From IMG/VR virus record IMGVR_UViG_3300045988_179183: a stretch of 64,000 nucleotides of DNA. The stretch is one strand, 5' to 3'. Origin of the DNA: a virus. A program made the position numbers and the translations under genes. Each line of letters starts with the position of its first letter. Position 1 is the first letter of the stretch. Below are positions 6,356 to 29,900 of the stretch, piece by piece. The notes below the pieces were generated by a model. It ran no database searches. It was not told where the DNA came from and saw only the letters and a program-made list of their open reading frames with translations.

Positions 6356-8356
6356 TTAATCCAATTTTATCTGTTTACGTATTTCCTCCAATAATTCCGG
6401 GTTGTCGGATAGTACTGTTTTAACATTCACCTCTCCTTGACCCAGACTCGTTCCATTATAGGAGAACCAACTTCCGTTCTTCTTGATGATACCCTGCTCG
6501 ATCGATAAATCTAATATTTCTTGCATGATATCGATCCCCTTACCGAAAGCGATTGAAATCTCCGCCTGCTTAAACGGGGGTGCTATTTTGTTTTTTTTAA
6601 CGGTGACCTTGCTCCGAATAGCGGTGACATCGTCACCCTCTTTTTTATTACCCATCCTGCAAATCTCGATACGCTGGGATGCGTAAAATTTCATCGCGTT
6701 TCCTCCGGGTGTTGTGTTCGCCGCACCCATAAATCCGATATTACTTCGGTATTGATTTATGAATATAACCAACGTCTTATTCTTCTTTGCCTTCTGCGCT
6801 ATAAGGGGTAACTCCGCGCTCATCAACCGAGCGACTAATGCGATCACGGCATCACCGACCTCACCATCTATCCTCGCCTTGGGTACTAACGCGGCGATGG
6901 AGTCAAGGATAATTATACCAATATCCGGGCAATCCAACATCCTCCTCATGATGGAAAGGGCCATCTCTGCCGAATCTGCCTGACTTAACACAAACTTTTC
7001 CGGGCTCAAATCAACCCCGAGTGCCCTCATATAATCAGGATCCATTGCTTGCTCGGTATCGATATAACCCGCCGAGCGACCCATATCCTGTACTTCCCTG
7101 CACGCGTGAATGGCGAGGGAAGTATTATGTGTTATAACATGATCCTCAAGCAAATATGAATGATCGGGTGAATCTATGCTAATACAAGTACATTCGCCTG
7201 CATCAACCTCATCTATTGCGACAACCTTTCTATGACACCCCCTTCCTGTGAGAAGAGCGGCTTTACTATGCTTTCTTTTGCAACTAAATGGATTGAACGT
7301 CACCCTCAACGAAATAGAGTAATAGGAAAAACCTTTCGTGTTATGACATAATTTAACCGGGGACGTATATCCACCTAAACTTTGAACAAGATAAATGATA
7401 TCGTTTATAAGTTGAAGTGATGCGCTTGTATATGATACAACACTTGCCGAAACGCAACCATCCGTATCCATTAATCCCGCCAACAGATCCCTTCTTTGCG
7501 AAATAGAACCGTTGAGATAGTTTTTTGGTATAAACTTATCGGACGAAGGAACTCGAATACCTAATCGATCAAGTTCAGAAATATATTCATTTTCACGACT
7601 ATAAATATCCTTTACAATTCGATATTGAGAACAATTTTTCTGATTTCTACAAACAGTTATCCTGTAACCATCATTTAATTCTAATTTAACTCGATCGATA
7701 ATATCGGAATCAGTGTTTCCTATCGCCATAGTGGGATAACAATGGAGGCATCCATCGCCAAGAAGAACCCCCAAAATATAAGGAGAGATAAAACAATCAA
7801 TAGGTTCTCTCTCTAAAGGTTTGCATAAAGGAATCTCCCATCTATAATTAGGCTTTGTTATGCCCCTCCTATAATCACTCGGAACGCGATTTCTTAAAAC
7901 GCCTTTTTCTATCATTGATTTAAGCGTTCTGGGTGCATATTTTCGAATATGAGGGTTACCCATATCTTTTGCGAACCAAATATGGTCCTCCGAGCATATT
8001 TTTTCAACACCATCAATAAACCGAACCTTATATAATCGTTTTATTCCTTGAGGATAAACACCGGTTACAGGATAAAGGTTTCCATCCGACGCGTAAACCT
8101 TATCCCCTATTCTTAAACTCTCAATAGGCGTGAGACCTTGTTCCGTAAATATCTTTGTACCATTCTTTAGGGCTTTGCCACTCGATTCATGTCCGAATAT
8201 CTCAACCAGCCTACCCAGTCCGTAACCACCACCTAGCGCTCTATCTAGAATCAACGAACCCGATGGCACTCTCTCAACATCTATGTAACTACCACATATT
8301 GCTTCCTTGCCGAACTCTTTCTCAATTCCGGCAATCATACTTTTTAAATCCATCAC
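6356..8356 (-). CDS. recA: RecA/UvsX-family recombinase interrupted by an intein
   Basis: N-extein SGSLILDRALGGGYGLGRLVEIFGHESSGK joins C-extein TSLAIHACREVQ...IIILDSIAALVP...FINQYRS, restoring the P-loop GHESSGKT. The exteins sum to 316 aa. Confidence 0.9.
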   Translation of the reverse strand: MMDLKSMIAGIEKEFGKEAICGSYIDVERVPSGSLILDRALGGGYGLGRLVEIFGHESSGKALKNGTKIFTEQGLTPIESLRIGDKVYASDGNLYPVTGVYPQGIKRLYKVRFIDGVEKICSEDHIWFAKDMGNPHIRKYAPRTLKSMIEKGVLRNRVPSDYRRGITKPNYRWEIPLCKPLEREPIDCFISPYILGVLLGDGCLHCYPTMAIGNTDSDIIDRVKLELNDGYRITVCRNQKNCSQYRIVKDIYSRENEYISELDRLGIRVPSSDKFIPKNYLNGSISQRRDLLAGLMDTDGCVSASVVSYTSASLQLINDIIYLVQSLGGYTSPVKLCHNTKGFSYYSISLRVTFNPFSCKRKHSKAALLTGRGCHRKVVAIDEVDAGECTCISIDSPDHSYLLEDHVITHNTSLAIHACREVQDMGRSAGYIDTEQAMDPDYMRALGVDLSPEKFVLSQADSAEMALSIMRRMLDCPDIGIIILDSIAALVPKARIDGEVGDAVIALVARLMSAELPLIAQKAKKNKTLVIFINQYRSNIGFMGAANTTPGGNAMKFYASQRIEICRMGNKKEGDDVTAIRSKVTVKKNKIAPPFKQAEISIAFGKGIDIMQEILDLSIEQGIIKKNGSWFSYNGTSLGQGEVNVKTVLSDNPELLEEIRKQIKLD
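7124..8173 (-). mobile_element. Intein (350 aa) with LAGLIDADG homing endonuclease in the RecA P-loop; class-3 signature
   Basis: Begins ALKNGTKIF (Ala1; codon gcc at 8173-8171). Ends VITHN followed by +1 Thr (7123-7121). LAGLIDADG blocks ILGVLLGDGC and LLAGLMDTDGC. Block B is SEDHIW (Trp at B:12). Block F is ECTCISID (Cys where class 1 has Asp). Block G is THN (Thr at G:5). Confidence 0.85.
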
Positions 8357-11656: not shown

Positions 11657-13650
11657 TTACGTTAGTATCAACACCTCCGTGTTTTCATTCGCGTAAATAG
11701 CCATTTGTTGATTTCTCTCGTCCCAGTTTGTTCGACCGTTCATAAACAGGATCGTATCCTTACAGTTTTTCAAAATATTTTCGAACGATTCATATTCATT
11801 GGACCAGAAAACAACCGTTCGAAACTGGTAATTCTGCTCAAGCGTGATGATGGCGTAATCACCCTTTCGTCCAGTTTTTATTGCGATTTCATACACATAA
11901 CCCCCAGCCGTTAAATTATAACTTTTCGTTTCCAAGGGATCGTCCACTATTTCCGAAAAATCTTTGAAAGGATACTCCGAATCACCAACCATCTCCTTGA
12001 AATAATCCAAGTATAATTTTGAGTAATTGAAAAACGCCAAACCACACAATTTCTTCTGCCTCAAATTATGCCACCACTCTAGTTTCACCTTATCGGGATT
12101 CAACTCAAACACATCTTTTTCCTTATCGATTTTTACCTTATTAACGGTTCTGTATCGTTTTATAAGTTTTATCCTGTCTATAACGTTTGATATTGATTCT
12201 AGCTTATCGAAAGCACCACATGAAATCAAATTTTCTATAACACTTTTATTAACGGCACTTCCTTTCTGTGAATGACGGTCTAAAAATTCATCAAAACCAA
12301 AGTAGGGGCCGTTCTCGGATCTTTCCTTCATGATCTCCGCTTGTGCCTTCTCGCCGACCTGTTTCACTGATGAGATTGACCACACCAAACTTTTATCAGT
12401 GAAATCTGTCTTGATCTTATCCGTCGATTCATTAATATCAGGGGGGGTCACCTTGATATTTCCTATTTCATTTATCTCGTGTAGATAAACGGGGAAATCA
12501 TCATCATCAGCGTAGGAGAACGCAACGGACCAGAAAGCTAACGGATAATTTACTTTTAACCACTGACACGCGTATCCTGTGTTTGCATACGCGACCGCGT
12601 GGGATTTATTGAACTGATAATCAGCCATATTCTCAATTTCCTTCCATGTCTCTTCCGCGTATTTTTGATCAACACCGAAATTCTCGATATAATTTTTCAA
12701 AAATCTTTCCCTGAAGGGTTGAAGTTTCTCCACGTTCTTCTTACCAATCGCACGGCGTGCGCCATCCGCGTCAACAAGATTAAACCCTCCTAACACTTGG
12801 AACATTTTCATTGTCTGCTCCTGCCATATCATGATATACCGGCTACTTTGAAGTATTTCTCCCGCCCCTTTTCTAAATGATACTTCCCTCTCACCCTTTT
12901 TACGAAGGATATACTCGTTATGGAAATTTCCCTCCATAACCCCCGGTCGATATAACCCAATACAGTTTACAAGCTCTGTTATGTTATCGGGCTTTAACAT
13001 CTTACAATATCCGGTTAACCCTTTCGCGCCAAAATGAAATACATCACCATTCCACCCCCTTTGAAAATACGAGTAAACTTTCGGATCATCAAGAGGTAAT
13101 TCATAGAGGTTGATTTCTTCACCAGTATCATCTTTGATTAATTTCAATATATCACCGAACTTACTTAACTGCAAGATTCCCAGAATATCCTCTTTCAAAA
13201 AACCCGCGGTGTCAAGTTCACCACCCTCCCACTCACTGATCAACATATCACCCTGCCGGCGAATCGGATTCCAATGATACATATCCTTTTCATCCGGGTA
13301 AATCATCATGGCACATGCGTGAATCGATTTCGCCTTAGGTTGACCCTGTATCAAGCCGACCATCTCGATGATCTCCGGGTTTCTGTTAATGAAATTCGCG
13401 ACATCTTTTTTCTGACAGGCGATTCTGAATAAATCATCAAAATCCTTCACACCATCTATTTTAGAAGTAAATGAGTTTACCTCTGCGACGGGGACACCTT
13501 TCAACCTACATAGATCCTTGACGGCGGCCTTGACTTGAAGAGTCGTGTAGGTTCCCACGGAGCAAACTTGATCGGCACCGTAACGCTCCTCCATGTATCT
13601 TTTAACTTCCGGTCTTCTCGCCATCTCGAAATCAGTATCGATGTCCCTTA
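11657..13650 (-). CDS. dnaE: DNA polymerase III alpha subunit (DnaE), downstream exon / C-terminal part
   Basis: The ORF-track protein starts at MARRPEVKRYMEERYGADQVCSVGTYTT. The frame is open a further 23 codons upstream with no ATG/GTG/TTG start and encodes ...AARLRDIDTDFE, the Pol III alpha catalytic Asp pair (E. coli PDFDVDF). Downstream motifs: FHFGAKGL, YRPGVMEG, FNKSHAVAYA. The 5' boundary near 13650 is approximate. Confidence 0.85.
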
Positions 13651-14643
13651 GTCTGGCAGCGAACCGTGCTTGATTCGCTGCCGCTTTTCTAATTTAATTG
13701 ATTTAACTATATATTCCATTTCAAATTTTGTTTTATCTGTTTTACAAATCTAGATTTTTCAATAAAAGACATCACCTTTCTCCTTATATCTGTTTCTCTT
13801 AAATACACCTCCGTATATAAAGGAACCCATTTCCTTTCGAATAGCTTGCCTTTCTGAAGAAAAGTAAGTAATGTATCATGATTACCACTCGGTGATAATG
13901 TTTTTTGTGCGTCATAAGCAGATAGAAATTTATGTACCTCTAAAGTATAAATATTTATCATCACAATCGGTTTCGCATTCGGATTAAGACTCCCTTTCGC
14001 AACACCCCGGTCTTTTCGGATTACTGAGATATGATCCTTCATTTCCTGGGACCATTTATTCCCATAATTACCATTTTTCCCACCCACTCGTCTCGGCGGC
14101 TTAATACCGCCAATTTTTAAATTTAGTGTTCGTCGATCTCTCACCCACTGATGATCAACTACACGTTTTTCCTGAATCAATGCATCATCTACGGTATTAA
14201 AATACAACAAATTCACTCTCTTAAACGCACCAACCCCGTACAATCTCACGCAATTACCTAATGGCATTGGTAAAGGGTCCTTGTAATCTTTTAAACCGGT
14301 GGAGTAATCCGTCTTGATTCCGCCACCAATATAAGAATCTTCCACTGTTTTTGATGAATGAACCCCAACATATACTTTTCCGTTTACCATACAGGTTGTT
14401 TTATACAAAATATTATAAAGGTTATTGTCACCCTTAAACGGATTCTTTTGTCCGTTCGAGCATTTTGCTAATATCTCCTGATCCGACACTAACGATTCTA
14501 TCTCCATCTTTTAAATCTTGAGCTTTTACATCTAATTTTTCTCCCGATCTAAAAATACACACTTTATCATCAAAATCCAACTCTATATCTAAATTATTAT
14601 CGAATGTGATTTTTACAACGTCCACTTCAACTTGTTGACCGAT
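13625..14643 (-). mobile_element. Intervening sequence in dnaE, probably a group I intron carrying a GIY-YIG homing endonuclease (boundaries approximate)
   Basis: Separates ...LLFERFLNKGR (codons ending ~14644) from ...RDIDTDFE (13627-13650), which are adjacent motifs in DnaE. Contains a free-standing GIY-YIG ORF. A 9-bp stem ggcagcgaa/ttcgctgcc (13655-13663/13674-13682) lies just 5' of exon 2. Confidence 0.6.
13707..14507 (-). CDS. GIY-YIG homing endonuclease
   Basis: 266 aa. N-terminal NLYNILYKTTCMVNGKVYVGVHSS...YIGGG fits the GIY-(10-11 aa)-YIG module. Basic C-terminal region with repeated GxxNxNxK-like motifs (GGKNGNYGNKW, GSLNPNAKP), typical of the NUMOD-type DNA-binding tails of intron endonucleases. 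Confidence 0.8.
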   Translation of the reverse strand: MEIESLVSDQEILAKCSNGQKNPFKGDNNLYNILYKTTCMVNGKVYVGVHSSKTVEDSYIGGGIKTDYSTGLKDYKDPLPMPLGNCVRLYGVGAFKRVNLLYFNTVDDALIQEKRVVDHQWVRDRRTLNLKIGGIKPPRRVGGKNGNYGNKWSQEMKDHISVIRKDRGVAKGSLNPNAKPIVMINIYTLEVHKFLSAYDAQKTLSPSGNHDTLLTFLQKGKLFERKWVPLYTEVYLRETDIRRKVMSFIEKSRFVKQIKQNLKWNI

Positions 14644-16056
14644 ACGACCTTTATTCAGAAAACGTTCGAATAGCAAATCGTAATCAAACGGGTTAATGTG
14701 CGTCAGACCCAATAAATAGGCGACGAGGGAGCCACAAGCTGATCCACGGCCGAACCCTACGAGTATACCTTGACGTTTACACCATTGGGTGATATCCCAA
14801 AGTATCAAGAAATAATCAACAACATCTCCGTATTTAATTACATCTATCTCAGTTTCAAGTCTATCAAGATACTTCTCTTGTTCATCAACATCACTTATCC
14901 CCATGCTATTAAACCCATCCGCGACCAAGGATATAAGCATATCAACTTTTGATCCATCATATTTCTTGAACTCCTCCTCGGTCATTTTATATTTAGGAAG
15001 ATGACGTTGTGATAGATCGACCTTGAAATTACTACACCTTTCAGCGATATCATTTGTGTTCTCGATCGCGAATCCGATGATATCAAGCATAATATCTTGG
15101 TCATTATCAGAGAATAACTCCCTAATCTCCATCAAATATTCTTCGTTACATTTGAAGTATTGATTTTTTGAAAAATCGTTACTTATACCCGCGGATGAAT
15201 TCAACGCTTTTTTCAGATAGAAATATTCTTGGTCCAAATAATACGCATCACAGATATTTGTGGGCAACATGGAACTTGAGAAATATTCCTGAAGATTCAA
15301 AAGATATACCCTATCTCTTTCATTTGAATCAAACTTAACTGAATCAAGTTGATAGTATGTGTTCATCAATTCTTTCGGCACATCTTTAAATTGCAGGCTC
15401 TTCGGGTCAATCACGATAATTAATCCCTCTCTCAATGACAGAAACTTTCCTTCATCGATCCTCACATTATTATCAACGTTAATTTCCTTGTTGATAGAAA
15501 GAAGGTTCATCCACCCTGTTTCATCCACGACGTAAACCTTCACATCGTACAGAAGATCTTTCTTTTGATTGAACACGGTAACGGTTTCACCGATCACCGG
15601 TTTCAAACCGTGTTTCTGGCATTCCAACTGAAATTTAAGCACACCCGCAAGTGTGTTTTTCTCACAGATACCCAAAATACTCACACCGAAAAAATTCGCT
15701 TTTCGACACCAATCTCCATAATCTCCGGTTCCGTTCAATAATTCAAACGGACCTCTCACTCCCAGAAATGATTCGGTCGGTAAATCACTATCAACCTTAC
15801 CGATATATTTCAAGAGTTTCAACTTCACTTTCGATTCATTACCCTTTCTCAAAGTGTAATACAGACGGCCGAACTTATAGATGTAATTATTCGCAGTGAT
15901 GGGTGTTCCTATGTAATTAAACCCTCGATCAAACAGAAGTCCGTCGACATTGGGCCCTGATAATTCATATGTATCACCATCCATTGTGATAATACCCAGG
16001 TCGGAAATATCATATATAAATCCATTGCGATCGAGATACGATAACAGTTCTTTCAT
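14644..16056 (-). CDS. dnaE: DNA polymerase III alpha subunit (DnaE), upstream exon / N-terminal PHP-domain part
   Basis: ORF 14434..16056. DnaE-like sequence (FLGVRGPFELLNGTG, GICEKNTLAGV, VGFGRGSACGSLVAYLLGLTHINPFDYDLLFERFLN) ends at ~14644. The remaining 69 codons are read-through into the intervening sequence. Confidence 0.85.
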
Positions 16057-16104: not shown

Positions 16105-16701
16105 TTATATCTCGCCCTGGCTGGAATCACAACTCGATGCCTCAATTGCCTTAACACACTTGTAAATATACACGTTGCTTTTTCCAAGAATGGTTGCTAT
16201 TTCAGCTTTTTTCTTTCCCTCAGAGAGAAGTTGTTTGATTTGAGGTAATAGTGGGTTACTGAGAGAGATCACACCGTTTCTCTTCCCGGTCACTGACTGT
16301 TTCTTCGCCTTCTTCTCAGCCGGTTTTTCATCCACACTTTTATCCGTTTCAACTGTGTGCTTCCTGAAATCATCCGGGTTGAAATTTTCACGGAATGAAA
16401 GGATCGCATCCAACTCACTCTCTTCAAGATCCTTCATATCGCGATCATCAACAATCGCGTCAACCCTGGCGTATAAATCGCATGCGCCAAACGCCGCCAG
16501 TTGATCGTAAAATTCGGTTGCCTGATCGCACTTGCTCTTTACATCCTGACCCAGTTGATCCGCAACCGAATTCTTTCGAGCCTCATATTCTTCCAATGTC
16601 TCAACTAATTTTAAATTAGACATTGTGATATAATTTTTAATTCCACGAATTGATGCTTCTTTACGAAGTTCCTCACGGGTCATTTCACTAAACTTTTTCA
16701 T
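16105..16701 (-). CDS. putative DNA-binding protein (SAP/Rho-N-like N-terminus, C-terminal HTH)
   Basis: 198 aa. MTREELRKEASIRGIKNYITMSNLKLVETLEE resembles SAP/Rho_N helices. C-terminal KKAEIATILGKSNVYIYKCVKAI is HTH-like. Confidence 0.45.
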   Translation of the reverse strand: MKKFSEMTREELRKEASIRGIKNYITMSNLKLVETLEEYEARKNSVADQLGQDVKSKCDQATEFYDQLAAFGACDLYARVDAIVDDRDMKDLEESELDAILSFRENFNPDDFRKHTVETDKSVDEKPAEKKAKKQSVTGKRNGVISLSNPLLPQIKQLLSEGKKKAEIATILGKSNVYIYKCVKAIEASSCDSSQGEI

Positions 16702-16745
16702 AATCTCTTGTTTTTAAGTTGTTACTGTTTCATTGTTTCAATGTC

Positions 16746-16776
16746 TAAAGATACACAATGTTTATTTATTTACCAA
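16746..16776 (-). promoter_or_regulatory. Bacteroidota-type promoter, conserved-box class (copy 2)
   Basis: Minus strand reads TTGG-N19-TATCTTTA within AATAAACATTGTGTATCTTTAGAC. It lies 45 nt upstream of the CDS start at 16701. Confidence 0.55.
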
Positions 16777-17569
16777 CGAATCCAGCAAAAAATCGGTACT
16801 TTTCAATATTAAATTTTATGTCATTCCATTGAGATTGTTGTACATCGATACCCACCATCTTATGAAGCATCACGGGAATTTTTTCTTCAAGTCCGCTATC
16901 CGTATATCTTACACCGTGTAAACCATGAATAACTGGATTAGATGTATCGATACTTCTGATAAAGTGATACTTATCCTCGTTATATTGGCAAACTTCTTGC
17001 GGTAATACTGTGCCCAGTAAATGCAACGGCTTTTCACAATCCATAACACCGTGATTGATGAGCTGGTCAATGAACATTTTTCTTCCTCTACAATATGCCT
17101 TCGATGTATTCTCATCAGCCGCGAGACTTAAATAAATGGGTAAGTTGAAAGGTAGCGCAACCATATCACAGCATTCGACCATGCATTTATAGCATTCGAC
17201 AAGTTCATTCCAACTTATCCCCTGAACAACACCGATTGAATAGCTGCACGATATTTTCTCCCACGTTCTCGCCATTCTCATCGTTTCTTTCGCATTTCTC
17301 AAAACATCGGGTAAAACGTAATAAGTTGGCTTCAGTGCCTTAATCCATGAACGAAATCTATTTGCGTCAAATGCCGACCCCAATTCGAACACTGAATTGT
17401 CAAGAATTACCTCGCGTCCCTTGTTAACAAGCGCATCCATGAAAAATTCGAAATAATCGCCACCTATATCGGGATCTTCAAACAAGTGAACAAGTGCGTA
17501 ATCATAATCAGTCATCGATTGAACCTTGTTCATAATCGATAACGGTGCTTCATGCGCTATCTTAATCAT
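16766..17569 (-). CDS. Divergent TGT/DpdA-like TIM-barrel protein (second transglycosylase paralog, tentative)
   Basis: 267 aa. VILDNSVFELG matches TGT DSGGFQ, IGVVQGISWNE matches GGLAxGE, PLHLLGTVLPQE matches hLLGxGxP, and IRSIDTSNPVIHGL matches DmFDcVxPTRxArxG. The same motif order is seen in the adjacent bona fide DpdA (20477..21373). Overlaps the QueC stop by 8 nt. Confidence 0.45.
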   Translation of the reverse strand: MIKIAHEAPLSIMNKVQSMTDYDYALVHLFEDPDIGGDYFEFFMDALVNKGREVILDNSVFELGSAFDANRFRSWIKALKPTYYVLPDVLRNAKETMRMARTWEKISCSYSIGVVQGISWNELVECYKCMVECCDMVALPFNLPIYLSLAADENTSKAYCRGRKMFIDQLINHGVMDCEKPLHLLGTVLPQEVCQYNEDKYHFIRSIDTSNPVIHGLHGVRYTDSGLEEKIPVMLHKMVGIDVQQSQWNDIKFNIEKYRFFAGFVGK

Positions 17570-19292
17570 TGTGTTGATATTTTATGGGATCCGTCATTCC
17601 GTTTAATTCAAACGCTTCGAGCCGCTCGGTACAATTATGCACCAAATATCCCTCACAAATAAATGAACCAGCACTAGTCTTAATATCATATACATGTGCC
17701 TCCTTAACTGGTTCATCTATTTTATTTACCACCACTTGGTCTAAAAGCCTTATTGAATTATATGTGCCTAACTTTTCAAGCATCGACGCACGTTTTCCCG
17801 CACCGTACTTTAATGTAATTATGTACGGTCTTGTTACTCTCCAAGTTTGCATAAGGGTACCGCCCTCTTTAAAACCGGGCGTAACGGATTGCGACCTGTC
17901 ACACTTAATCCCCAACAATGATAATGCTTTATCGATTTGAATACACTTTTCTTTATTCACAATCACTGCTTGGCTTATAGAAAAACCGAATGATCCATTT
18001 GATTTATTATGACAAGCACACCCATCAGCTATCAACATTCCGTTTAAATACCCGCGCAAATACTCAGGGTGTTCATTAAATTTTGTCTTCTCAAGAAACA
18101 CAGGACCATAACCGCCACCAGCACGGTGCATGTTGGTATCCTCCCTGTAAGTGATTTTTACATCACATGGCTTGATATATTTATCATAAAGAGACCAAAA
18201 TTCTTCCAATACATCGAACTCCTTTTGAAATGTATGAACACCCCGTGTGTCAATGGATCCATCACCATCAGCAAATCCACGTAAATAACCCAGGGCGAAT
18301 TTTTCATCATCAACCTCTTTTCTTGTATTTGATACTGGCCAAAATTTCACCATATAAGTAGCATCCTTTCTCTTCATCTCCTCGTACTTTCTATATCTTG
18401 GCCTTAACTTCATATTTGAAGCATACACATAATGATCCTTCGTTAAAAGAAGACCCGCCATATCATATACCGGTTGAATACCATTATCAAACTTATCCAA
18501 TACCTTCGCCACACAAATTTTCTTCGTGTTTTCATCCACGGACCACACTTCGTCTCCAATACAAATATCCTTAATTTGCTTCCATGTATTATCACTCATC
18601 AGTACTTTCTGCGATTCTTCTATACACGACCCACACCTTCCACACGATCTTCCTTCTGGATCGGGATTATAGCACGTGTGAGTGTTACCCAGAACCAAAT
18701 TAATTTCATAATCATTGAACCCGAGGATCGTCATCGCACGTAACCCTTCGGCAAGTACACCGCCCTTATCCATGTGATTGAACGGAGCTTCGTATCCCAC
18801 TCTTTCACTACCCCAATTCGATACTTTAAACGCGTGCTCACAAGCGATTCGAGATTCCTCGGATGTATCAGGATAACAGCAATGATCGCCGCTATGTAGG
18901 CCTAAAAACACATCAACATTACTCTCCGTTTTATTCGCCCATGAAAGTGCCTTCCCATAAATGATAGCGGAAAAGATCACGTTTCTATTTTCAATAACCG
19001 TTGATTTCATATTTTCGGACGCGTAATGACCTTCCGGTATAGGTTCACCACCTACATGAAGGGACGAATTACTGTCACTGAAACAATCCCTCAGATCGAT
19101 AATCTGGTGTGATAACTTAAACCTCTTACCTTGCAAGAACTCAATATTTCTTTTCACCTTCTCCAATTCAACCTGATGCTTCTGACCGTATTGAAAAGAA
19201 TAAGCCTTAACTTCGTAATCATGAGCAAGTAAATACATGAGCAAGCACGTACTATCCAATCCGCCCGATAAACTTAAAATCGCCTTTTTCAT
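17562..19292 (-). CDS. queC: 7-cyano-7-deazaguanine (preQ0) synthase QueC, interrupted by an intein
   Basis: MKKAILSLSGGLDSTCLLMYL (PP-loop SGGxDS), SFQYGQKH. Zinc motif CGRCGS + CTERLEAFELNG is restored after intein removal. The start is more likely ATG at 19292 than the ORF-track start at 19349, being 1 nt after the upstream stop. The exteins sum to ~245 aa. Confidence 0.88.
   Translation of the reverse strand: MKKAILSLSGGLDSTCLLMYLLAHDYEVKAYSFQYGQKHQVELEKVKRNIEFLQGKRFKLSHQIIDLRDCFSDSNSSLHVGGEPIPEGHYASENMKSTVIENRNVIFSAIIYGKALSWANKTESNVDVFLGLHSGDHCCYPDTSEESRIACEHAFKVSNWGSERVGYEAPFNHMDKGGVLAEGLRAMTILGFNDYEINLVLGNTHTCYNPDPEGRSCGRCGSCIEESQKVLMSDNTWKQIKDICIGDEVWSVDENTKKICVAKVLDKFDNGIQPVYDMAGLLLTKDHYVYASNMKLRPRYRKYEEMKRKDATYMVKFWPVSNTRKEVDDEKFALGYLRGFADGDGSIDTRGVHTFQKEFDVLEEFWSLYDKYIKPCDVKITYREDTNMHRAGGGYGPVFLEKTKFNEHPEYLRGYLNGMLIADGCACHNKSNGSFGFSISQAVIVNKEKCIQIDKALSLLGIKCDRSQSVTPGFKEGGTLMQTWRVTRPYIITLKYGAGKRASMLEKLGTYNSIRLLDQVVVNKIDEPVKEAHVYDIKTSAGSFICEGYLVHNCTERLEAFELNGMTDPIKYQHND
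17634..18626 (-). mobile_element. Class-1 intein (331 aa) with LAGLIDADG endonuclease inside the QueC Cys-cluster
   Basis: Starts CIEESQKVLMSDNTWKQIKDICIGDEVWS (Cys1 codon 18626-18624). Block B LLLTKDHYVY. LAGLIDADG blocks LGYLRGFADGDGS and LRGYLNGMLIADGC. Block F HVYDIKTSAGSFI. Ends GYLVHN with +1 Cys (17633-17631). Confidence 0.85.
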
Positions 19293-19293
19293 T

Positions 19294-19878
19294 TTATAAT
19301 CTGTAATTAAATTCCATAATATCCAATACCTGGGAAACTCTTTCGTCAATACTTCCGCTCACATAGTGTATCCCTCGTGGTGCGAAGTCTTGTAACATAC
19401 GCGCGTTTTTCTCAAATAAACGATCGATTTCCTTTTGAAATACTTCATCAGTTGACCGAACTCCGTCGTCCACGATTTTAAACTCCGGCCTCAGTACAAT
19501 GTGATGGCTGTAAAGGGGCTCTATATGAAATAGAAGTTGGGTGACCGTGTCAACCATTTCATCCCAGAGAGGCCTATCCTCGCTCGATGACCTGTCCCGG
19601 TTATACTCCGTGTAGCATAGAACATCTAATAAACATCTATCGGAAATAATATGATCATGCGCTGACATCGCTGACTCGATAATTTCTTTCACATACGAAG
19701 TTGCGATCCAAAGTTGATCATAAATACCCGCTTCCTTATTAATCTTTATGCCGCGATCATTACCTTTCCTTGAAGGAGATCCCATAAAGAGAGATCCCTT
19801 CAAACACTCCTCCTTTTTCAACGCCTCAATTAACGTTGTCTTACCTGTGCATTGAGCACCTGAAATTGATATAATCAT
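19294..19878 (-). CDS. P-loop NTPase / nucleotide-kinase-like protein
   Basis: 194 aa. N-terminal Walker A ISISGAQCTGKTTLIEAL. Its size and layout resemble small (d)NMP kinases or NadR-type kinases. Confidence 0.55.
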   Translation of the reverse strand: MIISISGAQCTGKTTLIEALKKEECLKGSLFMGSPSRKGNDRGIKINKEAGIYDQLWIATSYVKEIIESAMSAHDHIISDRCLLDVLCYTEYNRDRSSSEDRPLWDEMVDTVTQLLFHIEPLYSHHIVLRPEFKIVDDGVRSTDEVFQKEIDRLFEKNARMLQDFAPRGIHYVSGSIDERVSQVLDIMEFNYRL

Positions 19879-19908
19879 TTTTAAACAATTAATTTATTTC
19901 TAACACCA

Positions 19909-19943
19909 TAAAGATACACAAAGTGTATCGAATTATCAACAAA
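19909..19943 (-). promoter_or_regulatory. Bacteroidota-type promoter, conserved-box class (copy 3)
   Basis: Minus strand reads (T)TTG...CACTTTGTGTATCTTTATGGTGTTA. The -7 box TATCTTTA corresponds to plus 19909-19916, 30 nt upstream of the CDS start at 19878. Confidence 0.55.
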
Positions 19944-19966
19944 AACAGAGATTATTTTCTCTGTTT
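19943..19966 (-). terminator. Rho-independent terminator at the end of the dCTP-deaminase-like gene
   Basis: 8-bp stem aaacagag/ctctgttt with an 8-nt loop spanning the stop codon. The minus strand continues TTTTTGTTG. Overlaps the -33 region of the next promoter. Confidence 0.5.
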
Positions 19967-20452
19967 GTCGTTTTGATATTGGCCGTTATATAAATCTTCC
20001 TCGTTTACATCCGTGCAATCATAACAGTAGAACTGGGCCACGCGGGCGTTCTTCTCGATCGTGATTGTGTGAAACACTTCCATGAACGTACCCATCGAAT
20101 CAGTGTGAAAACCCGCGTCGAAAATCGATGAATAAATCCAAGCACCGCACCGGGCAACTGAACTTCGCTGTACTATCCGACCCATTTTGTTTTTGGGTAT
20201 GTTACAACCTTCAATGAAATCAACCATGTAATACCCCGGAGGTAGATGCCAAACTTCGTTTCCATTTATATCAGGAAAACATCGAACTTCTTCGTATGAG
20301 GGTAACATTGTTTTGCCCTCGCGGGGTATGAATCCATGACCTTTCACAACACTTACCTTTCTCAACCGAATATCACATCCGTGCTGGGTTAGATTCTCTT
20401 CTAAATGATTAACGATAACACCTTCTCCGTGTAATTCCTTTCCGTTTAACAT
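19952..20452 (-). CDS. dCTP deaminase/dUTPase-superfamily protein
   Basis: 166 aa. RSSVARCGAWIYSSIFDAGFHTDSMGTFMEVFHT matches the Dcd/dUTPase pattern RSSxaRxG...xDxGfxG... Confidence 0.6.
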   Translation of the reverse strand: MLNGKELHGEGVIVNHLEENLTQHGCDIRLRKVSVVKGHGFIPREGKTMLPSYEEVRCFPDINGNEVWHLPPGYYMVDFIEGCNIPKNKMGRIVQRSSVARCGAWIYSSIFDAGFHTDSMGTFMEVFHTITIEKNARVAQFYCYDCTDVNEEDLYNGQYQNDKQRK

Positions 20453-20476
20453 AATCTCTAATTTATTAAAATTTAA

Positions 20477-21373
20477 CTATTCAATTATTTCATCATTCTG
20501 TTTTTCATACAAGAACTCTCTCGCTCTCGCGTCAGCGAACGCGTACAAAACTATATCTCGACTCAGATAATGATACGGTATCCTGCCAGATAGATCGGGG
20601 CCGGCACTCCCATACGCATCTTGCCCCGGTACGAGGGTTCCCTCTGCCACTTTCTTCAAAAAATTATTACGTGCCTTCTCAATATTGATGGCGTACCTGA
20701 AAATAGAGAAATCGACCGAATCCGGCATGACAAACCGGGTTGTTTCAACGTTTGAACATCCCAGGAGATGAACGTATTTCCCTTTATCGCGAGCGTACTT
20801 CATCATCTTTCCCAGTTCATCCCTGTACACATGCCATTCCCTACCCTGAGCCAGACCTCCTATCGAAAGGATGGGGTAGAGGGGCGAGTCACAGAGATCC
20901 TTCCAGTATTGAAAACCCTGATGCATTTTAAATACCGGTGCGGGATAGTACCCTGTTATTTCCTTGATCTCGTCTCTCAGATAATTTTTAGGTGATAACA
21001 GGTTATCATCTTTTCTAAAATACTCGTTATCAAGTTCAAAACACATTTTAAACGGATACATTTTAAGAAACCGAAGAAACTTTTTCTTCATTTTCTCGCA
21101 TTCATTCCAAAAATCAGGGTTGTTTTCACCCAGTTTCTTCTGTTTTTTGAATAATGTGAAACCACCGGAATCCAACCATATTCGATCGCCTCCAACAACG
21201 GTTTGAATAAATTTAATATACCCGGCGGTCATATCAACGGTTGAAATTAGATAGTCGTTATCATGTGCAAGCAAAAGTTTTTCCAAGACCTTATCGGACC
21301 TACAACTACACACCAGACCACCACCCAATCCCATCACAAGCCTTTTTTTAGGTTTTTCAAACATATCAATCAA
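20477..21373 (-). CDS. dpdA: DpdA-type DNA (7-deazaguanine) transglycosylase, TGT family
   Basis: 298 aa. IWLDSGGFTLF (TGT DSGGFQ motif), ILSIGGLAQGRE, VHLLGCSNVE, DSVDFSIFRY. Embedded in the folE/queD/queE/queC cluster. Confidence 0.75.
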   Translation of the reverse strand: MIDMFEKPKKRLVMGLGGGLVCSCRSDKVLEKLLLAHDNDYLISTVDMTAGYIKFIQTVVGGDRIWLDSGGFTLFKKQKKLGENNPDFWNECEKMKKKFLRFLKMYPFKMCFELDNEYFRKDDNLLSPKNYLRDEIKEITGYYPAPVFKMHQGFQYWKDLCDSPLYPILSIGGLAQGREWHVYRDELGKMMKYARDKGKYVHLLGCSNVETTRFVMPDSVDFSIFRYAINIEKARNNFLKKVAEGTLVPGQDAYGSAGPDLSGRIPYHYLSRDIVLYAFADARAREFLYEKQNDEIIE

Positions 21374-21806: not shown

Positions 21807-22448
21807 TTATTTTCTCCCGAGTTTATAAATCTGTATCGCTCTTAAAAACTCATCTCGGCTATTCATCTCATTTGTTAAAAACGCCCCCGAACAATAGTGG
21901 GTTGTCATCGTACTATTATCTTCCGCGCCCCGCATACTCACGCACATATGTTCCGCCTCAATATAAACTGCGATACCCAGCACTGTGTCGCCGAATATGT
22001 TAACCAAATAATCATGAATCTGACGAGTTAATTGTTCTTGTAATTGAGGCCGTTTGGCGAACCAGTGAACTATTCTGTTTAGTTTCGAAAGACCAATAAC
22101 TTGGCCACTTTCCTTGCTGATATACGCCAAACTACAGAATCCTGTGAACGGAAGTAAATGGTGTGAACACAATGAATTCACCTCGATCCCATGTTCAATT
22201 ACCATACCTGAGTATCCTGAACTTGGGAATACCGCCAATTTCGGAGGTGCAGAATACGCACCTGACGTGATTTCATTGACAAACATTTTCGCAACCCTGT
22301 ACGGTGTTTTTATCATGTTAGGGTCATTCTTCCAATCATACCCCAGGGCCTCCAAGAACTTACCGTACGCCTCGGTGGCCCTTGCCAACATCTCGTTTCT
22401 ATCATCATCGGAAAGAACGACGTTCCCTCCTGCCATTATTTTTTTCAT
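21807..22448 (-). CDS. folE: GTP cyclohydrolase I (FolE)
   Basis: 213 aa. SLCSHHLLPFTG (CxHH zinc site), RPQLQEQLTRQI, EAEHMCVSMRG. All are hallmark GCYH-IA motifs. Confidence 0.9.
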   Translation of the reverse strand: MKKIMAGGNVVLSDDDRNEMLARATEAYGKFLEALGYDWKNDPNMIKTPYRVAKMFVNEITSGAYSAPPKLAVFPSSGYSGMVIEHGIEVNSLCSHHLLPFTGFCSLAYISKESGQVIGLSKLNRIVHWFAKRPQLQEQLTRQIHDYLVNIFGDTVLGIAVYIEAEHMCVSMRGAEDNSTMTTHYCSGAFLTNEMNSRDEFLRAIQIYKLGRK

Positions 22449-22473: not shown

Positions 22474-23238
22474 CTAAGCATCTCTCTTATCTCCGAAGAT
22501 TATTATATGTAAGCGGTCAGAGTAGAAGTAGCCCAAATCTATACATCTCTGTGCCAACCATTTTCTTTTCTCTGCCAGTTTCTCCTCGGTATCCCCCTCC
22601 GGCATCAGATAGACTATTACAGGCCAGAAGGGGTCCAGTTTAGATACCTCCTTCTTAATTTTCCGAACTTGTCTCTCGACTTCCTTTATATCATCCTCCG
22701 AGGACACCACATATTTCAACTGCGAGAATTTCGATTCCATGATCCATGACACTATAGCGGGGATATTCTCCCTCGTTTTCGCGTGTTTCTCCGCGAATTC
22801 GCCCGAACTCGGAATTGAACTCTTCAATTTAGGTGAGATTGATACGACGTCTACGTACGTATCCTCATCCAGTACATCACCTCTCGCGATGGTTCCGTTC
22901 GTTTCCATGCTCACACTCAACTTATGTCTCCGACCTATCTCGATCAACGATCTCAACAATTCGGGATGAAGGGTCGGTTCTCCCCCGGTAATAAGCATGC
23001 ATTTTATCTGAGGGTTCATGATTATGATATCGACGACATCGTTCAATGAATATTTACCCTTTTCCGGGTTCCACGAGCTGTAGGCCGTGTCACATATACT
23101 CCCTTTAAAAGTACATCTCAGGTTACACCCAGATGTTCTTATAAGAATATGGGGGACCCCCACCTTCATACCCTCTCCCTGTATACAGGTGTGCAAATCA
23201 ATAATCGGTTGAATTTCTGAATAATCCATTTTTAACAT
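22474..23238 (-). CDS. queE: 7-carboxy-7-deazaguanine synthase QueE (radical SAM)
   Basis: 254 aa. IQGEGMKVGVPHILIRTSGCNLRCTFKGSICDTAYS, LITGGEPTL. Confidence 0.85.
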   Translation of the reverse strand: MLKMDYSEIQPIIDLHTCIQGEGMKVGVPHILIRTSGCNLRCTFKGSICDTAYSSWNPEKGKYSLNDVVDIIIMNPQIKCMLITGGEPTLHPELLRSLIEIGRRHKLSVSMETNGTIARGDVLDEDTYVDVVSISPKLKSSIPSSGEFAEKHAKTRENIPAIVSWIMESKFSQLKYVVSSEDDIKEVERQVRKIKKEVSKLDPFWPVIVYLMPEGDTEEKLAEKRKWLAQRCIDLGYFYSDRLHIIIFGDKRDA

Positions 23239-23465
23239 AAATAAGCGTTATACAATTCTATAAACTCGGCGAGATCCAGTTCTGAGAATCTCCGTTCTTT
23301 CGCAATCTCTTTAATAAGATCAAGTTGATTTTCATAAAGCTCGTCCGCCATCTCACCATACCCGCTCACCCTTAAATCAATCACAGGCAATGAAAGTTCA
23401 AATGCCAGACTTTCATCAAACCCATAGCGATCAACAAGATCATTTAGTTCCTTTTTCGTTATCAT
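23232..23465 (-). CDS. small acidic hypothetical protein within the deazaguanine operon
   Basis: 77 aa. Overlaps the QueD stop (4 nt) and the QueE start (7 nt), implying co-translation. No motif. Confidence 0.55.
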   Translation of the reverse strand: MITKKELNDLVDRYGFDESLAFELSLPVIDLRVSGYGEMADELYENQLDLIKEIAKERRFSELDLAEFIELYNAYLC

Positions 23466-24037
23466 AACTTCACTTGTAGTTCAACCTTTGGGTTCACGAA
23501 TTTAATCCCTCGAAAAAGTTTATGATAAATCTCAGTTTTTGCCAGTGAAGGGCTAACTTCTATTTCTTCGGGATACATTTCCAAGTATCTATCATAATCA
23601 TTTCGATCCGATTCGGCATAACCAGTATCTGTTTCATGAACTCGCACTGATTGCACAACCACGTTACCCTCACCATTGTTAAATTCTGTTTTTTCCAATA
23701 TCGATTCAAAACAAGCGAAAAACATGGATGAGAGTAATTCAGCGGAGGGATTGCAAGGTAAAATTATCCACCTATCATTCATCGCCTGTATAAAATTTTT
23801 GTAAACCTCGTTATCCTTCGCCCACAATAAATGAGTATGATCGAATAAATCAACGACTTCTTTAAAATTACCAAGAAGACCGAAATCGACGACCATCCCT
23901 GCGTTATCCAAACGATCCGAGGTCAAAAATAACTCAACTTTATAGCTGTGTCCGTGAATTGAATGTGAACATCTGTCCGATGTACAATTTCTCACAATAT
24001 GGCTTCCCTCAAACTTAAACAATTTTCTAATTATCAT
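23462..24037 (-). CDS. queD: 6-carboxy-5,6,7,8-tetrahydropterin synthase QueD (PTPS family)
   Basis: 191 aa. FKFEGSHIV...CSHSIHGHSYKVELFL (PTPS zinc-His motif), VVDFGLL, VRVHETDTGYAE. Confidence 0.85.
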   Translation of the reverse strand: MIIRKLFKFEGSHIVRNCTSDRCSHSIHGHSYKVELFLTSDRLDNAGMVVDFGLLGNFKEVVDLFDHTHLLWAKDNEVYKNFIQAMNDRWIILPCNPSAELLSSMFFACFESILEKTEFNNGEGNVVVQSVRVHETDTGYAESDRNDYDRYLEMYPEEIEVSPSLAKTEIYHKLFRGIKFVNPKVELQVKL

Positions 24038-26982: not shown

Positions 26983-29900
26983 TCAATCCAAATCAACAAA
27001 ATCAATCATTGCCTGTACGTTGTTTTCCCTCAAATCTTGTATTGCCATGAACGATGACATACATATATCATCATGTCCACAAACTGATTCAAGAGTCCCT
27101 TTCTTTGAGTTAAACGCGATTGAATTAAATTCACCAAACATCGTATCAACCAACTTTCGTGTGTTTTCATCTCCGTAAGGCACCCTCAAACGTGCACTTT
27201 CAAAAAACGCTGATAGTGAGGGTAGACCTGATTTCAGATCCTTTTTATTCCCTTCAGTTGTGATAAATTCCTCGACATTAACTAATCCCCTCTCTTTCGC
27301 CATACCCGCAAGAATTCTTTGAAATCCATTCGACTCACACACGGATTTGTTCGGTTTATATCTCGCGTTAAATTCAATAAGTTTATTCACTTGAAGATCA
27401 TGGCTCGCACCCTGCTCTCTAAATATATTTATAAGATATATCAATCCGTGTGCATCCATACCCCATACAGTGTATACTGTATAATCGGCACCCACATTAC
27501 CCGATATCGCAAAATCACATCCCACGACAACCCTGACTAACTTTATGGGGTAACTTTCTATATCATTTGCGAAACTGATATGTTCCATCCCACGTATCGA
27601 TCTTTTCAGAAATTCATACGGGAAAATCGTTGACGTGTCCGCGATCGGCACAACTAGATATTCTCGGTTGAAAACTAACGTTCCAAGTGATTTCCGTTCC
27701 TCCGTTAACCTTTTAAACGTAAGACGATCAGGTGCTAACAGTTGACCATTTGGGAAAACCGCCGGGTATTCAAATACCTTGAATCGGCCATCTTTTTTTA
27801 AATCCCCGTAAATATCCGTTGCCGAATACGGTGTGTTGTGTGATATTATCCCATTCGAAATAAACCGATGAGAAATTGGGATTTTGAAATCAACGGTGTA
27901 AGACTCACTCTCAATTATCGATTTTATCGGTGCGAAATGATACTTCAAATTCATATTACTCAAAATAATCTGAACATCAGGATCATTTTGAGGTAAAGAT
28001 AAAATCCATTTTTTTATCGGTCCGTTCATTCTTTTAAAAGAATGAACTTTCGTATAAAAATCCCCCGATCTCATACCGTAAAATTTCATCTTATCATTAC
28101 CCAACGGATATTTTGATCGAATCTTTCTTAATATCACCGATTGAAACGGTATTCCTTTATCAATGCAAGAGGATTCTCTCCTAGTTTCTCGCGGAACCTT
28201 CCCTTTTCCTGAATAAGTGAACCCGATTTTCTCCATGAATAGTTTCACGCTCGAATTTTTGCTTATAACCAAATTGTATCCTGTTCGGTTTGATTTAACT
28301 AATTCGGTTGATTGGCATTTTTTCTTCTCAATACGTGAATCAATCCCCATGTTAAGAAGAAGTATTTGAATCTGCTGGATTAAACGAAAGCTCGTTGAAA
28401 AATAGCTTACATTTATTCCTTTATCTGAACGATGTCCGTGATAGCAGCATCCATCGCCATCAAAACACCCTCGAAGAAACCATATAACATCCTCCTCGGA
28501 CGCACTCATGATTTTATCAGGAATTGTCTTGGTATGCGAATACATCCCTTTTCGATACCCTAAACTCAACCACGTGGAGATTTTCTCCTTGCTATTAAAC
28601 GACATCCCTATGTGATTTTTCTTAGGGTGATACCCCCTCTCATTAATCAGAAAATTTCTTATACCGGGATTCTTTTTTGTTATCGTGACCCTATTTCCAT
28701 AACCACTTAAATCCAACGTACCGTCCGCTATACAAAGCCCGATTTCATAAAGCTCCTCCCCTTCTATACCAAGAGAACGACCCCAAATATTTGACCCCAT
28801 CTTAAACGCGACAAAATCTCCTTCATACAAATCTTTCGCGTTAACCCATTCGAATAAGCCCGTTTCCGAATTACATCTAAGTAAAGGATGAATGAAACTT
28901 GTTTCAATCTCCAATCCGTTTGAAAGGGTTATGATTTTTGTGGGGGTTTTTCCGTTTACGTAATAGTCTGTCGCGTTAACAAATCCCTCACCATCATGAA
29001 TGTTCATATCAAGAGGGAAAAACCCCTTCTCTCTTTCAATATTAACAGGAGATAATTTGCCAATTTCAGTTAAACCGTTTTCGGTAAACACGTACGTATC
29101 TGGTCTCACACAACCGAGTACACATAAATAGCCGAACGGTTCCACGATCGGAGTGATTGACCCGTAAAAAACTTCATGAAGCTTCTCCCTTTGCTCTTGT
29201 GAATACAACGAACTTTCATCAGGCAGGTCGTCGCATACGACGGCACCAACGTGAAGACCTCGAATCATGGAATCTTTCGATCTCAAATGGAGGATTGAAT
29301 CTGTTTCAGTCGTGATTGATGTCGCGGCTAACTTAGCTTTTCCGTTGCGATTCAATTTCTCCCGAAGAATATCATTTTGCTCTATCTCGGAAATAATCAT
29401 CGCGATGTGTTTCTTGCCGAGTGTTTCATTATTCGTAATCATACACGTTTCCTTACGATTCTTATTGTCGATACTATCCCTAAGAAACGTGGTTGGTCGG
29501 TCATAAGAATATAACCTCCATAAAATGAATGCAAAACACCCCTCGTAACTATTATGTACAACGGTCCCATCTTTCAAGAGAAAAAGGTGATCTCCGTCAC
29601 AAGAAAAACCAACATAATCGCCATCACCGATACATTCAACCTTGAGAGAGGTTGATAAATTATCCTGCACCGTGATTTTTGAAGGTATCTTCTTTCTTTC
29701 TATTTTCACAGGAATTTCATCAACATCTCCCGAAATTGTTATCCTGTAATGAGTATAATCATGAAGGATGTTTTCACCCTTTAATGTTTTCACCTTTACA
29801 TCTGCCGTCCGAGTTATAATCGAATTACATCTGAATCCCAATGATTGAGCAAGTCTTTGCGTTTGCTCTATTAAATTCCTGTCCTTAAACCCAATTTCAA

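Follow-up and report, generated by a model that had tools for sequence, protein, structure and literature searches.

Why would a phage keep its gene for 7-cyano-7-deazaguanine synthase, queC, with an intein set among the cysteines that bind the enzyme's zinc, and does such an insert splice itself out, control its host protein or disable it? The question is raised by a 64,000-nucleotide (nt) stretch of viral DNA, IMG/VR record IMGVR_UViG_3300045988_179183 (hereafter the window, meaning the whole stretch), for which an earlier note, made from the sequence alone, had proposed an intein at 17634-18626 within the zinc cysteine cluster of QueC. We located it at exactly these positions, on the minus strand. 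It is very probably a genuine, splicing-competent class-1 intein whose LAGLIDADG homing endonuclease is still active or was until very recently. By the ordinary pathway it would give mature QueC and free endonuclease, and we see in it a selfish parasite of a conserved motif rather than a regulator.

The precursor and its zinc site

The start of queC is likely MKKAIL at 19292, which gene callers also use on other contigs; short plus-strand open reading frames (ORFs) across the region were unsupported and were disregarded. The parts of the gene and its insert are as follows, where aa denotes amino acids and A1 is an alignment of 12 homologous inteins.

17562..19349, minus: queC ORF, with a TTG start (ORF list)
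17562..19292, minus: queC precursor coding sequence, comprising N-extein, intein and C-extein, 576 codons and stop (ORF list, translation)
18627..19292, minus: N-extein, 222 aa (translation, QueC alignment)
19251..19268, minus: SGGLDS in the N-extein (motif definition from PMC13329287)
19167..19190, minus: YGQKHQVE in the N-extein, complete relative to YxQxHxxE (motif definition from PMC13329287)
18981..18995, minus: IENRN in the N-extein (motif definition from PMC13329287)
18864..18890, minus: empty second insertion site in the N-extein, GDH/CCYPDT (sequence)
18627..18674, minus: three zinc-ligand cysteines of the N-extein, in CYNPDPEGRSCGRCGS (alignment to solved QueC)
17634..18626, minus: intein, 993 nt, 331 aa, precursor residues 223-553 (translation)
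18624..18626, minus: Cys1 of the intein (invariant in A1)
18432..18452, minus: block B, LLLTKDH, with T62 and H65 (A1)
18258..18293, minus: LAGLIDADG motif 1, LGYLRGFADGDG, with acidic residue D122 (A1)
18021..18059, minus: LAGLIDADG motif 2, LRGYLNGMLIADG, with acidic residue D201 (A1)
17634..17693, minus: blocks F and G, VYDIKT...GYLVHN, with VYD from 17693 and D314, H330 and N331 (A1, profile)
17634..17639, minus: HN of block G (translation)
17565..17633, minus: C-extein, 23 aa, CTERLEAFELNGMTDPIKYQHND (translation)
17631..17633, minus: +1 Cys, the fourth zinc ligand (alignment to solved QueC)

With a slash at each splice junction, the translation reads ...TCYNPDPEGRSCGRCGS / CIEESQKVLMSD...FICEGYLVHN / CTERLEAFELNGMTDPIKYQHND. 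The core of this arrangement, ...SCGRCGS / CIEESQ...GYLVHN / CTERLEAF, is in frame and bears out the split between CGRCGS and CTERLEAF that had been described earlier. Removal of the intein reconstitutes the insertion site as GAAGGAAGATCGTGTGGAAGGTGTGGGTCG/TGTACCGAGCGGCTCGAAGCGTTTGAATTA and leaves a QueC of 245 aa, with computed masses of 27.5 kDa for this protein and 37.8 kDa for the intein.

Canonical QueC (PF06508 cluster 1, preQ0 synthase) is defined by SGGxDS, YxQxHxxE, VPxRN, YPDC and C(x)8CxxCxxC (PMC13329287, a 2026 survey). The window protein shares the PP-loop SGGxDS, YxQxHxxE and the zinc motif with the canonical enzymes of E. coli and B. subtilis (3BL5), and differs from them in its interruption by an intein, an x9 zinc spacing, YPDT and IENRN. 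Its Pfam QueC match, with E = 4.6e-36 and 124.7 bits (cut-off 22), covers aa 22-244 of the ORF that starts at TTG. The spliced form aligns end to end with PDB entries 2pg3 and 3bl5, gap-free over the junction and at ~23-24% identity to the solved QueCs (Foldseek alignment).

The zinc motif, C(x)9CxxCxxC here against a canonical C(x)8CxxCxxC, arises only once the intein is removed. Because TCYNPDPEGRSCGRCGSCTERL of the spliced protein overlies the zinc stretch of 2pg3, and Cys186/195/198/201 in 3bl5, splicing would restore the motif with the +1 Cys as its last cysteine. This residue, C554, is invariant in the precursor alignment A2 and is predicted from the alignment to be the fourth QueC zinc ligand, so the claim that the +1 nucleophile doubles as the last Cys of CxxCxxC held. 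The check that the earlier note had called for, an alignment with intein-less QueC homologues, had the same outcome: the boundaries restore CxxCxxC relative to 2pg3 and 3bl5, and the rejoined sequence resembles CG.CGSCTERLEAF as it stands in three intein-less relatives, P0109, P0111 and P0063. The extein motifs and zinc cysteines are conserved on either side of the intein. Since three of the zinc ligands are parted from the fourth by 331 residues, the phage QueC should need splicing, and it is reasonable to suppose that DNA modification by the phage-encoded enzyme relies on it; a host QueC could bypass this dependence at the level of the pathway.

Every splicing and endonuclease element named in the earlier note (Cys1, TxxH, two LAGLIDADG blocks, VYD, HN and the +1 Cys) could be placed. 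C1, T62, H65, D314, H330, N331 and the +1 Cys are invariant across the 12 inteins of A1, which share 40-73% identity with the window's; in each LAGLIDADG motif the acidic residue is retained, with D122 at least 90% conserved and D201 always D or E. When a profile built from A1 was searched against PDB, it matched solved inteins, led by Spl DnaX (2.7e-8) and followed by DnaB, NrdJ-1, PI-MtuI and PI-SceI. These matches span both the N- and C-terminal splicing blocks, the latter aligning to Spl DnaX, NrdJ-1 and PI-MtuI. Pfam LAGLIDADG_3 was matched at 30.1 bits, above its cut-off of 22.5.

An AlphaFold2 model of the precursor (mean predicted local distance difference test score, pLDDT, of 83.7) gave Foldseek matches to three kinds of protein: the inteins TliVMA (1.1e-14), PI-SceI (1.5e-12) and the Ssp DnaB mini-intein (1e-4); QueC 3bl5/2pg3 (~4e-8, template-modelling (TM) score ~0.7); and the LAGLIDADG enzymes I-Tsp061I (4e-7), I-DmoI (~3e-6, TM 0.6) and I-SceI (1e-4). 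Together, sequence and model support a predicted three-part build of QueC, HINT domain and LAGLIDADG endonuclease, in which the insert would be a class-1 intein with a two-motif LAGLIDADG endonuclease inside its splicing domain.

The closest structural parallels are the V-ATPase inteins PI-SceI and TliVMA, which share Cys1, the block B TxxH, the C-terminal HN, the +1 Cys and a HINT domain interrupted by a two-motif LAGLIDADG endonuclease; the PI-SceI type is also a profile match. The QueC intein is only 11-15% identical to them, is shorter (331 aa compared with 454 aa for PI-SceI) and sits in QueC rather than in an ATPase catalytic subunit. The sole NCBIfam model touched by the intein, NF038136 (E = 1.4e-7, 30.8 bits against a cut-off of 700), describes the Rv2578c-family radical SAM protein, another case of an intein in a metal-cluster enzyme outside replication. 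This weak match covers shared intein blocks only, and the exteins are unrelated.

Splicing would begin with an N-S acyl shift by Cys1, aided by T62, H65 and D314, after which trans-thioesterification would pass the N-extein to the +1 Cys. Cyclisation of Asn331, with help from His330, and an S-N shift would then join CGRCGS to CTERLEAF, giving the 27.5-kDa QueC with its full C(x)9CxxCxxC. The released 37.8-kDa intein would cleave intein-less queC alleles during co-infection, and repair would copy the intein into them.

Horizontal transfer and purifying selection

The comparison with a related phage of the same gene order (locus L001) revealed a footprint of recent horizontal transfer. Over ~4.6 kb, the flanking genes and both exteins of the two phages are 55-80% identical at the nucleotide level, whereas the intein is 100% identical. 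The longest identical run covers 992 nt, from 18611 to 17620, and is preceded by a single mismatch at 18612; the high identity breaks off sharply 3 nt inside the N-extein and 14 nt inside the C-extein. A 992-nt identical block amid 55-80% identity would make an unusually clean natural case of recent intein homing between divergent phages. The same discordance is seen in the proteins P0047-P0049, whose N-exteins are 73-79% identical to that of the window and whose inteins are 99-100% identical. P0050 shows the opposite, with an extein at 94% and an intein at 72.5% identity; its locus, L010, lacks the identity step, which fits a long vertical residence of the intein.

Eight close loci were found in IMG/VR, and seven close relatives from this database were compared (L004-L007, L009, L011 and the mosaic L008). 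Six of the seven have 1-4 mismatches per 993-nt intein, against roughly 2-6% divergence in adjacent genes. The seventh, L008 (IMGVR_UViG_3300045988_177456), has 36 intein mismatches (~96% identity) between flanks of ~100% identity, and its N-extein is about 72-75% identical to 18627..19226 of the window; the N-exteins of L004 and L005 are 13% divergent from the window. These patterns in L004, L005 and L008 look like recombination tracts that terminate at the intein.

Between the window and L008 inteins, the ratio of nonsynonymous to synonymous substitution rates (dN/dS) is 0.10 over the full length; taken separately, the N-terminal splicing domain gives 0.07 and the endonuclease domain 0.12. 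For the pair with L010, synonymous divergence was saturated and gave no ratio. Because the ratio is low in both parts, it points to purifying selection on the splicing and the endonuclease functions alike. The 992-nt block, the discordance between extein and intein, the mosaics and the low dN/dS are indirect signs, and are the footprints expected of endonuclease-driven homing.

Several observations weigh against a working, mobile intein. The extein is divergent, with IENRN in place of VPxRN (RN retained) and YPDT in place of the YPDC found in close relatives of the window QueC. It scores 119.7 bits with the NCBIfam model TIGR00364, below the cut-off of 150.3, although the alignment spans the whole model. 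The single intein sequence gave no phmmer match in PDB, where a profile was required, and its Pfam Intein_splicing score of 25.9 bits lies under the gathering cut-off of 35.8. No intein-less allele with at least 90% extein identity occurred among the matches listed (best 120 of 168), and ongoing homing would be invisible within the close lineage because the intein appears fixed there.

Some of these points would suit an insertion that no longer splices, leaving either an inactive queC, with preQ0 taken from the host, or a fused QueC-endonuclease that works as such. Splicing is itself read from sequence, the extein falls under the NCBIfam QueC cut-off with an altered YPDC, and free-standing relatives of the intein (P0125-P0127) without Cys1 and HN indicate that derivatives of the family do lose splicing. 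We nevertheless regard a dead or domesticated insertion as highly improbable. Every splicing residue is intact and invariant, dN/dS is ~0.07 in the N-terminal splicing domain, the extein motifs and zinc cysteines are conserved on both sides, and a 3bl5-like zinc knuckle could not form around a 331-residue insert unless it were spliced out. A splicing-competent intein with a functional or recently functional endonuclease thus remains by far the better account.

Insertion sites in QueC and the possibility of a switch

A search with the precursor found 168 proteins, the best 120 of which were taken, and 124 cluster representatives were retrieved in all. A homologous intein occupies the same position (site b, CxxC[GP][STA]/C...HN/C) in 67 of the 124. 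All but one of the 67 were found with a motif pattern that itself demanded Cys1, terminal [HS]N and +1 Cys, and all 66 of these have Cys1, HN and +1 Cys; the remaining protein, P0123, has the same junction by inspection. Some site-b QueCs have only ~27-32% extein identity to the window, with inteins that are still 40-55% identical. Searching with the intein by itself gave 64 proteins, every one a QueC. When 1.84 billion representatives were searched exhaustively with phmmer, no more than 163 relatives reached E <= 1e-3, among them QueCs with an intein at the third site described below.

These data also bear on whether the insertion could be an artefact of a chimeric contig or of mis-joined reads. 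Nothing past the general risk of metagenomic sequence speaks for this, and we give it almost no credence: the insertion is in frame, its junctions are exact in the 67 site-b representatives, and an identical product of 576 aa recurs in 48 indexed collection blocks of NCBI, ENA and Logan (24 contigs read) as well as in IMG/VR. Throughout the close lineage, on contigs of ~100 kb, the intein is always present.

Site b is one of three insertion sites. A different intein lies at a second site, GDH/C...SN/S(I/V)YPDC, two residues ahead of YPDC, in 51 of the 124 representatives; these inteins are either mini (138-176 aa) or larger (236-395 aa) and look unrelated. Their +1 residue is Ser, rarely Cys (proteins P0063-P0120), and the window's copy of this site is empty. 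One protein of 945 aa, P0046, carries inteins at both site b and the second site. The third site, YPD/C, falls inside the YPDC motif itself and is used in P0128, P0130-P0133 and by the first intein of P0052. Inteins at the third site begin with Ala (AVAKGS...) instead of Cys, and those of P0128 and P0130-P0133 are 34-37% identical to the window's, which suggests that one intein lineage jumped between two Cys-preceding QueC sites with a change of its N-terminal nucleophile. In one gut-phage clade, QueC thus appears as a hotspot for inteins, whose three sites all fall on functional motifs, YPDC and the zinc knuckle.

Related elements were also seen outside these sites. P0125, P0126 and P0127 are free-standing ORFs of 326-338 aa that start with Met, lack Cys1 and the terminal HN and are 38-40% identical to the whole intein; they could be intein-derived free endonucleases (HO-like domestication) or gene-call fragments. 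On a 90-kb viral contig (L012 3422..5269, plus strand), a LAGLIDADG intein with 22% identity interrupts another PP-loop ATPase (615 aa, SGGVDS) just ahead of a Cys-rich stretch, HN/CCGKGGNGPDCGG. A free-standing gene with a NUMOD3 domain, of homing-endonuclease type, lies at L020 1766..2632 (minus strand) directly beside a queC with a site-a mini-intein.

Beyond viral metagenomes, matches were few. Megablast of 16700..20500 against GenBank phages gave no match, and tblastn of the precursor against the same set gave extein-level QueC matches only. As none of these covers at least 80% of the query, no isolated phage in the GenBank set has this intein. When one genome of every GTDB species was scanned, the only intein to emerge was 26% identical and lay in an SNF2 helicase of a metagenome-assembled genome. 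The site-b QueC intein therefore looks viral rather than cellular.

The earlier note had called QueC an unusual host for an intein. This holds for the literature, where we found no description of QueC inteins, only unrelated co-occurrences, and does not hold for metagenomes, in which QueC of this phage clade often carries them (67 and 51 of the 124 representatives at site b and the second site, respectively). Intein surveys emphasise replication and repair proteins, nucleotide metabolism and ATPases (PMC4760082), a bias that QueC fits as an ATP-using PP-loop enzyme of nucleic-acid metabolism, and phage intein hosts include TerL, methylases, TOPRIM and portal proteins, among others (PMC5050341). 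QueC goes unmentioned in the main text of PMC4760082, PMC5050341 and PMC7886860, as does queuosine in the latter two, and the 2026 QueC family survey does not mention inteins (PMC13329287).

The intein itself is ordinary. The novelty lies in its host protein, its position at a metal ligand, a QueC hotspot of three sites and a homing footprint that is very clean. QueC, and thus the phage 7-deazaguanine DNA-modification pathway, joins the list of intein hosts. Intein-bearing QueCs of 560-950 aa are now annotated plainly as '7-cyano-7-deazaguanine synthase', and surveys based on length or motif would misread them. A compact 331-aa intein with an endonuclease, from a mesophilic gut phage, may also be of use in protein engineering.

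Could the intein nonetheless act as a conditional switch? Such a role would not exclude splicing and homing. Zinc loading, thiol redox state or both would decide whether the precursor splices, and would thereby gate preQ0 synthesis and hence DNA modification. In the precursor, C(-6)GRC(-3)GSC1 would mimic CxxCxxC, with Cys1 in place of the fourth ligand; splicing would be stopped at its first step by bound zinc or by a disulfide joining Cys1 to Cys(-3) or to Cys+1, so that active QueC would form only in a reducing or zinc-poor cytoplasm. The idea draws on native cysteines at -6 and -3 next to Cys1 and the +1 Cys, on the conservation of CxxC[GP][STA]/C in all site-b proteins and on the retention of the intein at site b in QueCs of just ~27-32% extein identity.

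There are precedents for such control. The Pyrococcus abyssi MoaA intein naturally contains a redox trap between Cys-3 and Cys1, which has also been built into Ssp DnaE, and Pab PolII has a disulfide between Cys1 and Cys+1 (PMC3922620); zinc inhibits several inteins through catalytic residues, including that of DnaB in its native host (PMC10663303). The MoaA intein is the nearest parallel, being set in a metal-dependent biosynthetic enzyme with a native Cys three residues before Cys1 (PMC3922620, PMC10663303). It differs in that the flanking cysteines of QueC are zinc ligands, the +1 Cys among them, and in that the QueC host is a phage of gut bacteria rather than a hyperthermophilic archaeon; a redox or metal response of the QueC intein is hypothetical.

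We consider a conditional switch unlikely. The cysteine pattern is not evidence for regulation because QueC itself dictates it, and any intein with Cys1 and a +1 Cys at this position would show the same layout. The sharp identity step and low divergence favour homing over selection for a benefit to the host, intein-less QueCs appear to work in related phages (P0109, P0111), and the hosts are probably anaerobes, whose cytoplasm is reducing. More generally, the data do not separate regulation from plain parasitism. The native C(-6)xxC(-3)xxC1...C+1 layout is a ready test system for metal- or redox-conditional splicing in any case. If a switch did operate, phage DNA hypermodification would become post-translationally gated, and the intein would be the first found in nature to have as its nucleophiles ligands of its host protein's structural metal site.

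The phage, its deazaguanine pathway and its other inteins

The selfish intein that we favour sits in what appears, from the genes around it, to be a preQ0 pathway of the phage's own. The neighbours of queC are listed below; QueD, QueE, FolE, the dCTP-deaminase/dUTPase-like ORF and the AAA_28 kinase-like ORF were assigned with PHROGs, Pfam and NCBIfam.

23462..24037, minus: QueD
22474..23238, minus: QueE
21807..22448, minus: FolE
20477..21373, minus: TGT/DpdA-like ORF (phrog_887, queuine tRNA-ribosyltransferase, 1.6e-10; DSGGF motif)
19952..20452, minus: dCTP-deaminase/dUTPase-like ORF
19294..19878, minus: AAA_28 kinase-like ORF
16766..17569, minus: downstream gene of 267 aa that overlaps the queC stop (phrog_19058, E = 2e-46)

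As in known phage 7-deazaguanine DNA-modification clusters, queC is linked to queD, queE, folE and a TGT-like gene, and the gene order from queD to the AAA_28 gene upstream of queC is kept in L001. The set thus corresponds, by gene content, to that of phage 7-deazaguanine DNA modification; its DpdA member is weakly assigned, as the TGT/DpdA-like ORF had no Pfam or NCBIfam match. The phrog_19058 gene lies directly downstream of queC in all related loci examined (L001, L002 and L013-L018) and may belong to the modification pathway too. The possibility that it is a second DpdA paralogue was rejected, since the gene does not resemble the TGT-like ORF in BLASTP and matches nothing in Pfam or NCBIfam. 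At L019 3001..4329, an AAA_28 kinase-like protein is fused to an intein-less QueC (P0111, 442 aa), which suggests that the two proteins function together.

The virus, a myovirus, encodes a tail sheath protein and baseplate J. Between its capsid protein and those of the Bacteroides thetaiotaomicron phages DAC and SJC, identity is 37-38%; with uncultured human faecal phages it reaches 52-54%. The source is probably an uncultured gut myovirus of about 100 kb with its own preQ0 pathway (FolE, QueD, QueE and QueC) and a TGT/DpdA-like transglycosylase.

Homing elements are not confined to queC in this genome. The gene for Pol III alpha (dnaE), within 11657..16056 (minus strand), is in two ORFs, 14434..16056 and 11657..13624, between which lies a gene of 266 aa (13707..14507, phrog_314) that resembles homing-endonuclease genes and encodes a GIY-YIG-like NGKVYVGVH. 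In the N-terminal part of dnaE, FERFLN is followed by ~70 further residues, LDIELDFDD among them, before the ORF ends. Rfam at gathering thresholds found no RNA family in the whole window, and so no recognisable group I intron at the split. The arrangement may be a 'gene in pieces', an unrecognised intron or a split intein.

Like the TerL and RecA inteins of mycobacteriophages and of Delta and Zeta crAss-like phages (PMC5050341, PMC7886860), the QueC intein bears an endonuclease, is exchanged horizontally and belongs to a genome with several inteins. It is only weakly similar to the TerL and RecA inteins of the window itself, with a best match of 32% over 37 aa, and we therefore rejected a recent copy of one of these as its origin. 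TerL (26983..30996, minus strand, 1,337 aa) contains two inteins. The first is in the Walker A loop, SSGK/CLSPETEIVMADGT...TVVHN/SYEG, at aa 125-492, with Hom_end_hint and Hom_end domains; the second, VLG/CVRPDTYVF...IISHN/TPYS, spans about aa 629-1054 and matches LAGLIDADG_3. A RecA/UvsX-like recombinase (6356..8356, minus strand, 666 aa) has a P-loop intein, GHESSGK/ALKNGTKIF...VITHN/TSLAI; because its first residue is Ala, not Cys or Ser, any splicing would have to follow a route other than that of class 1.

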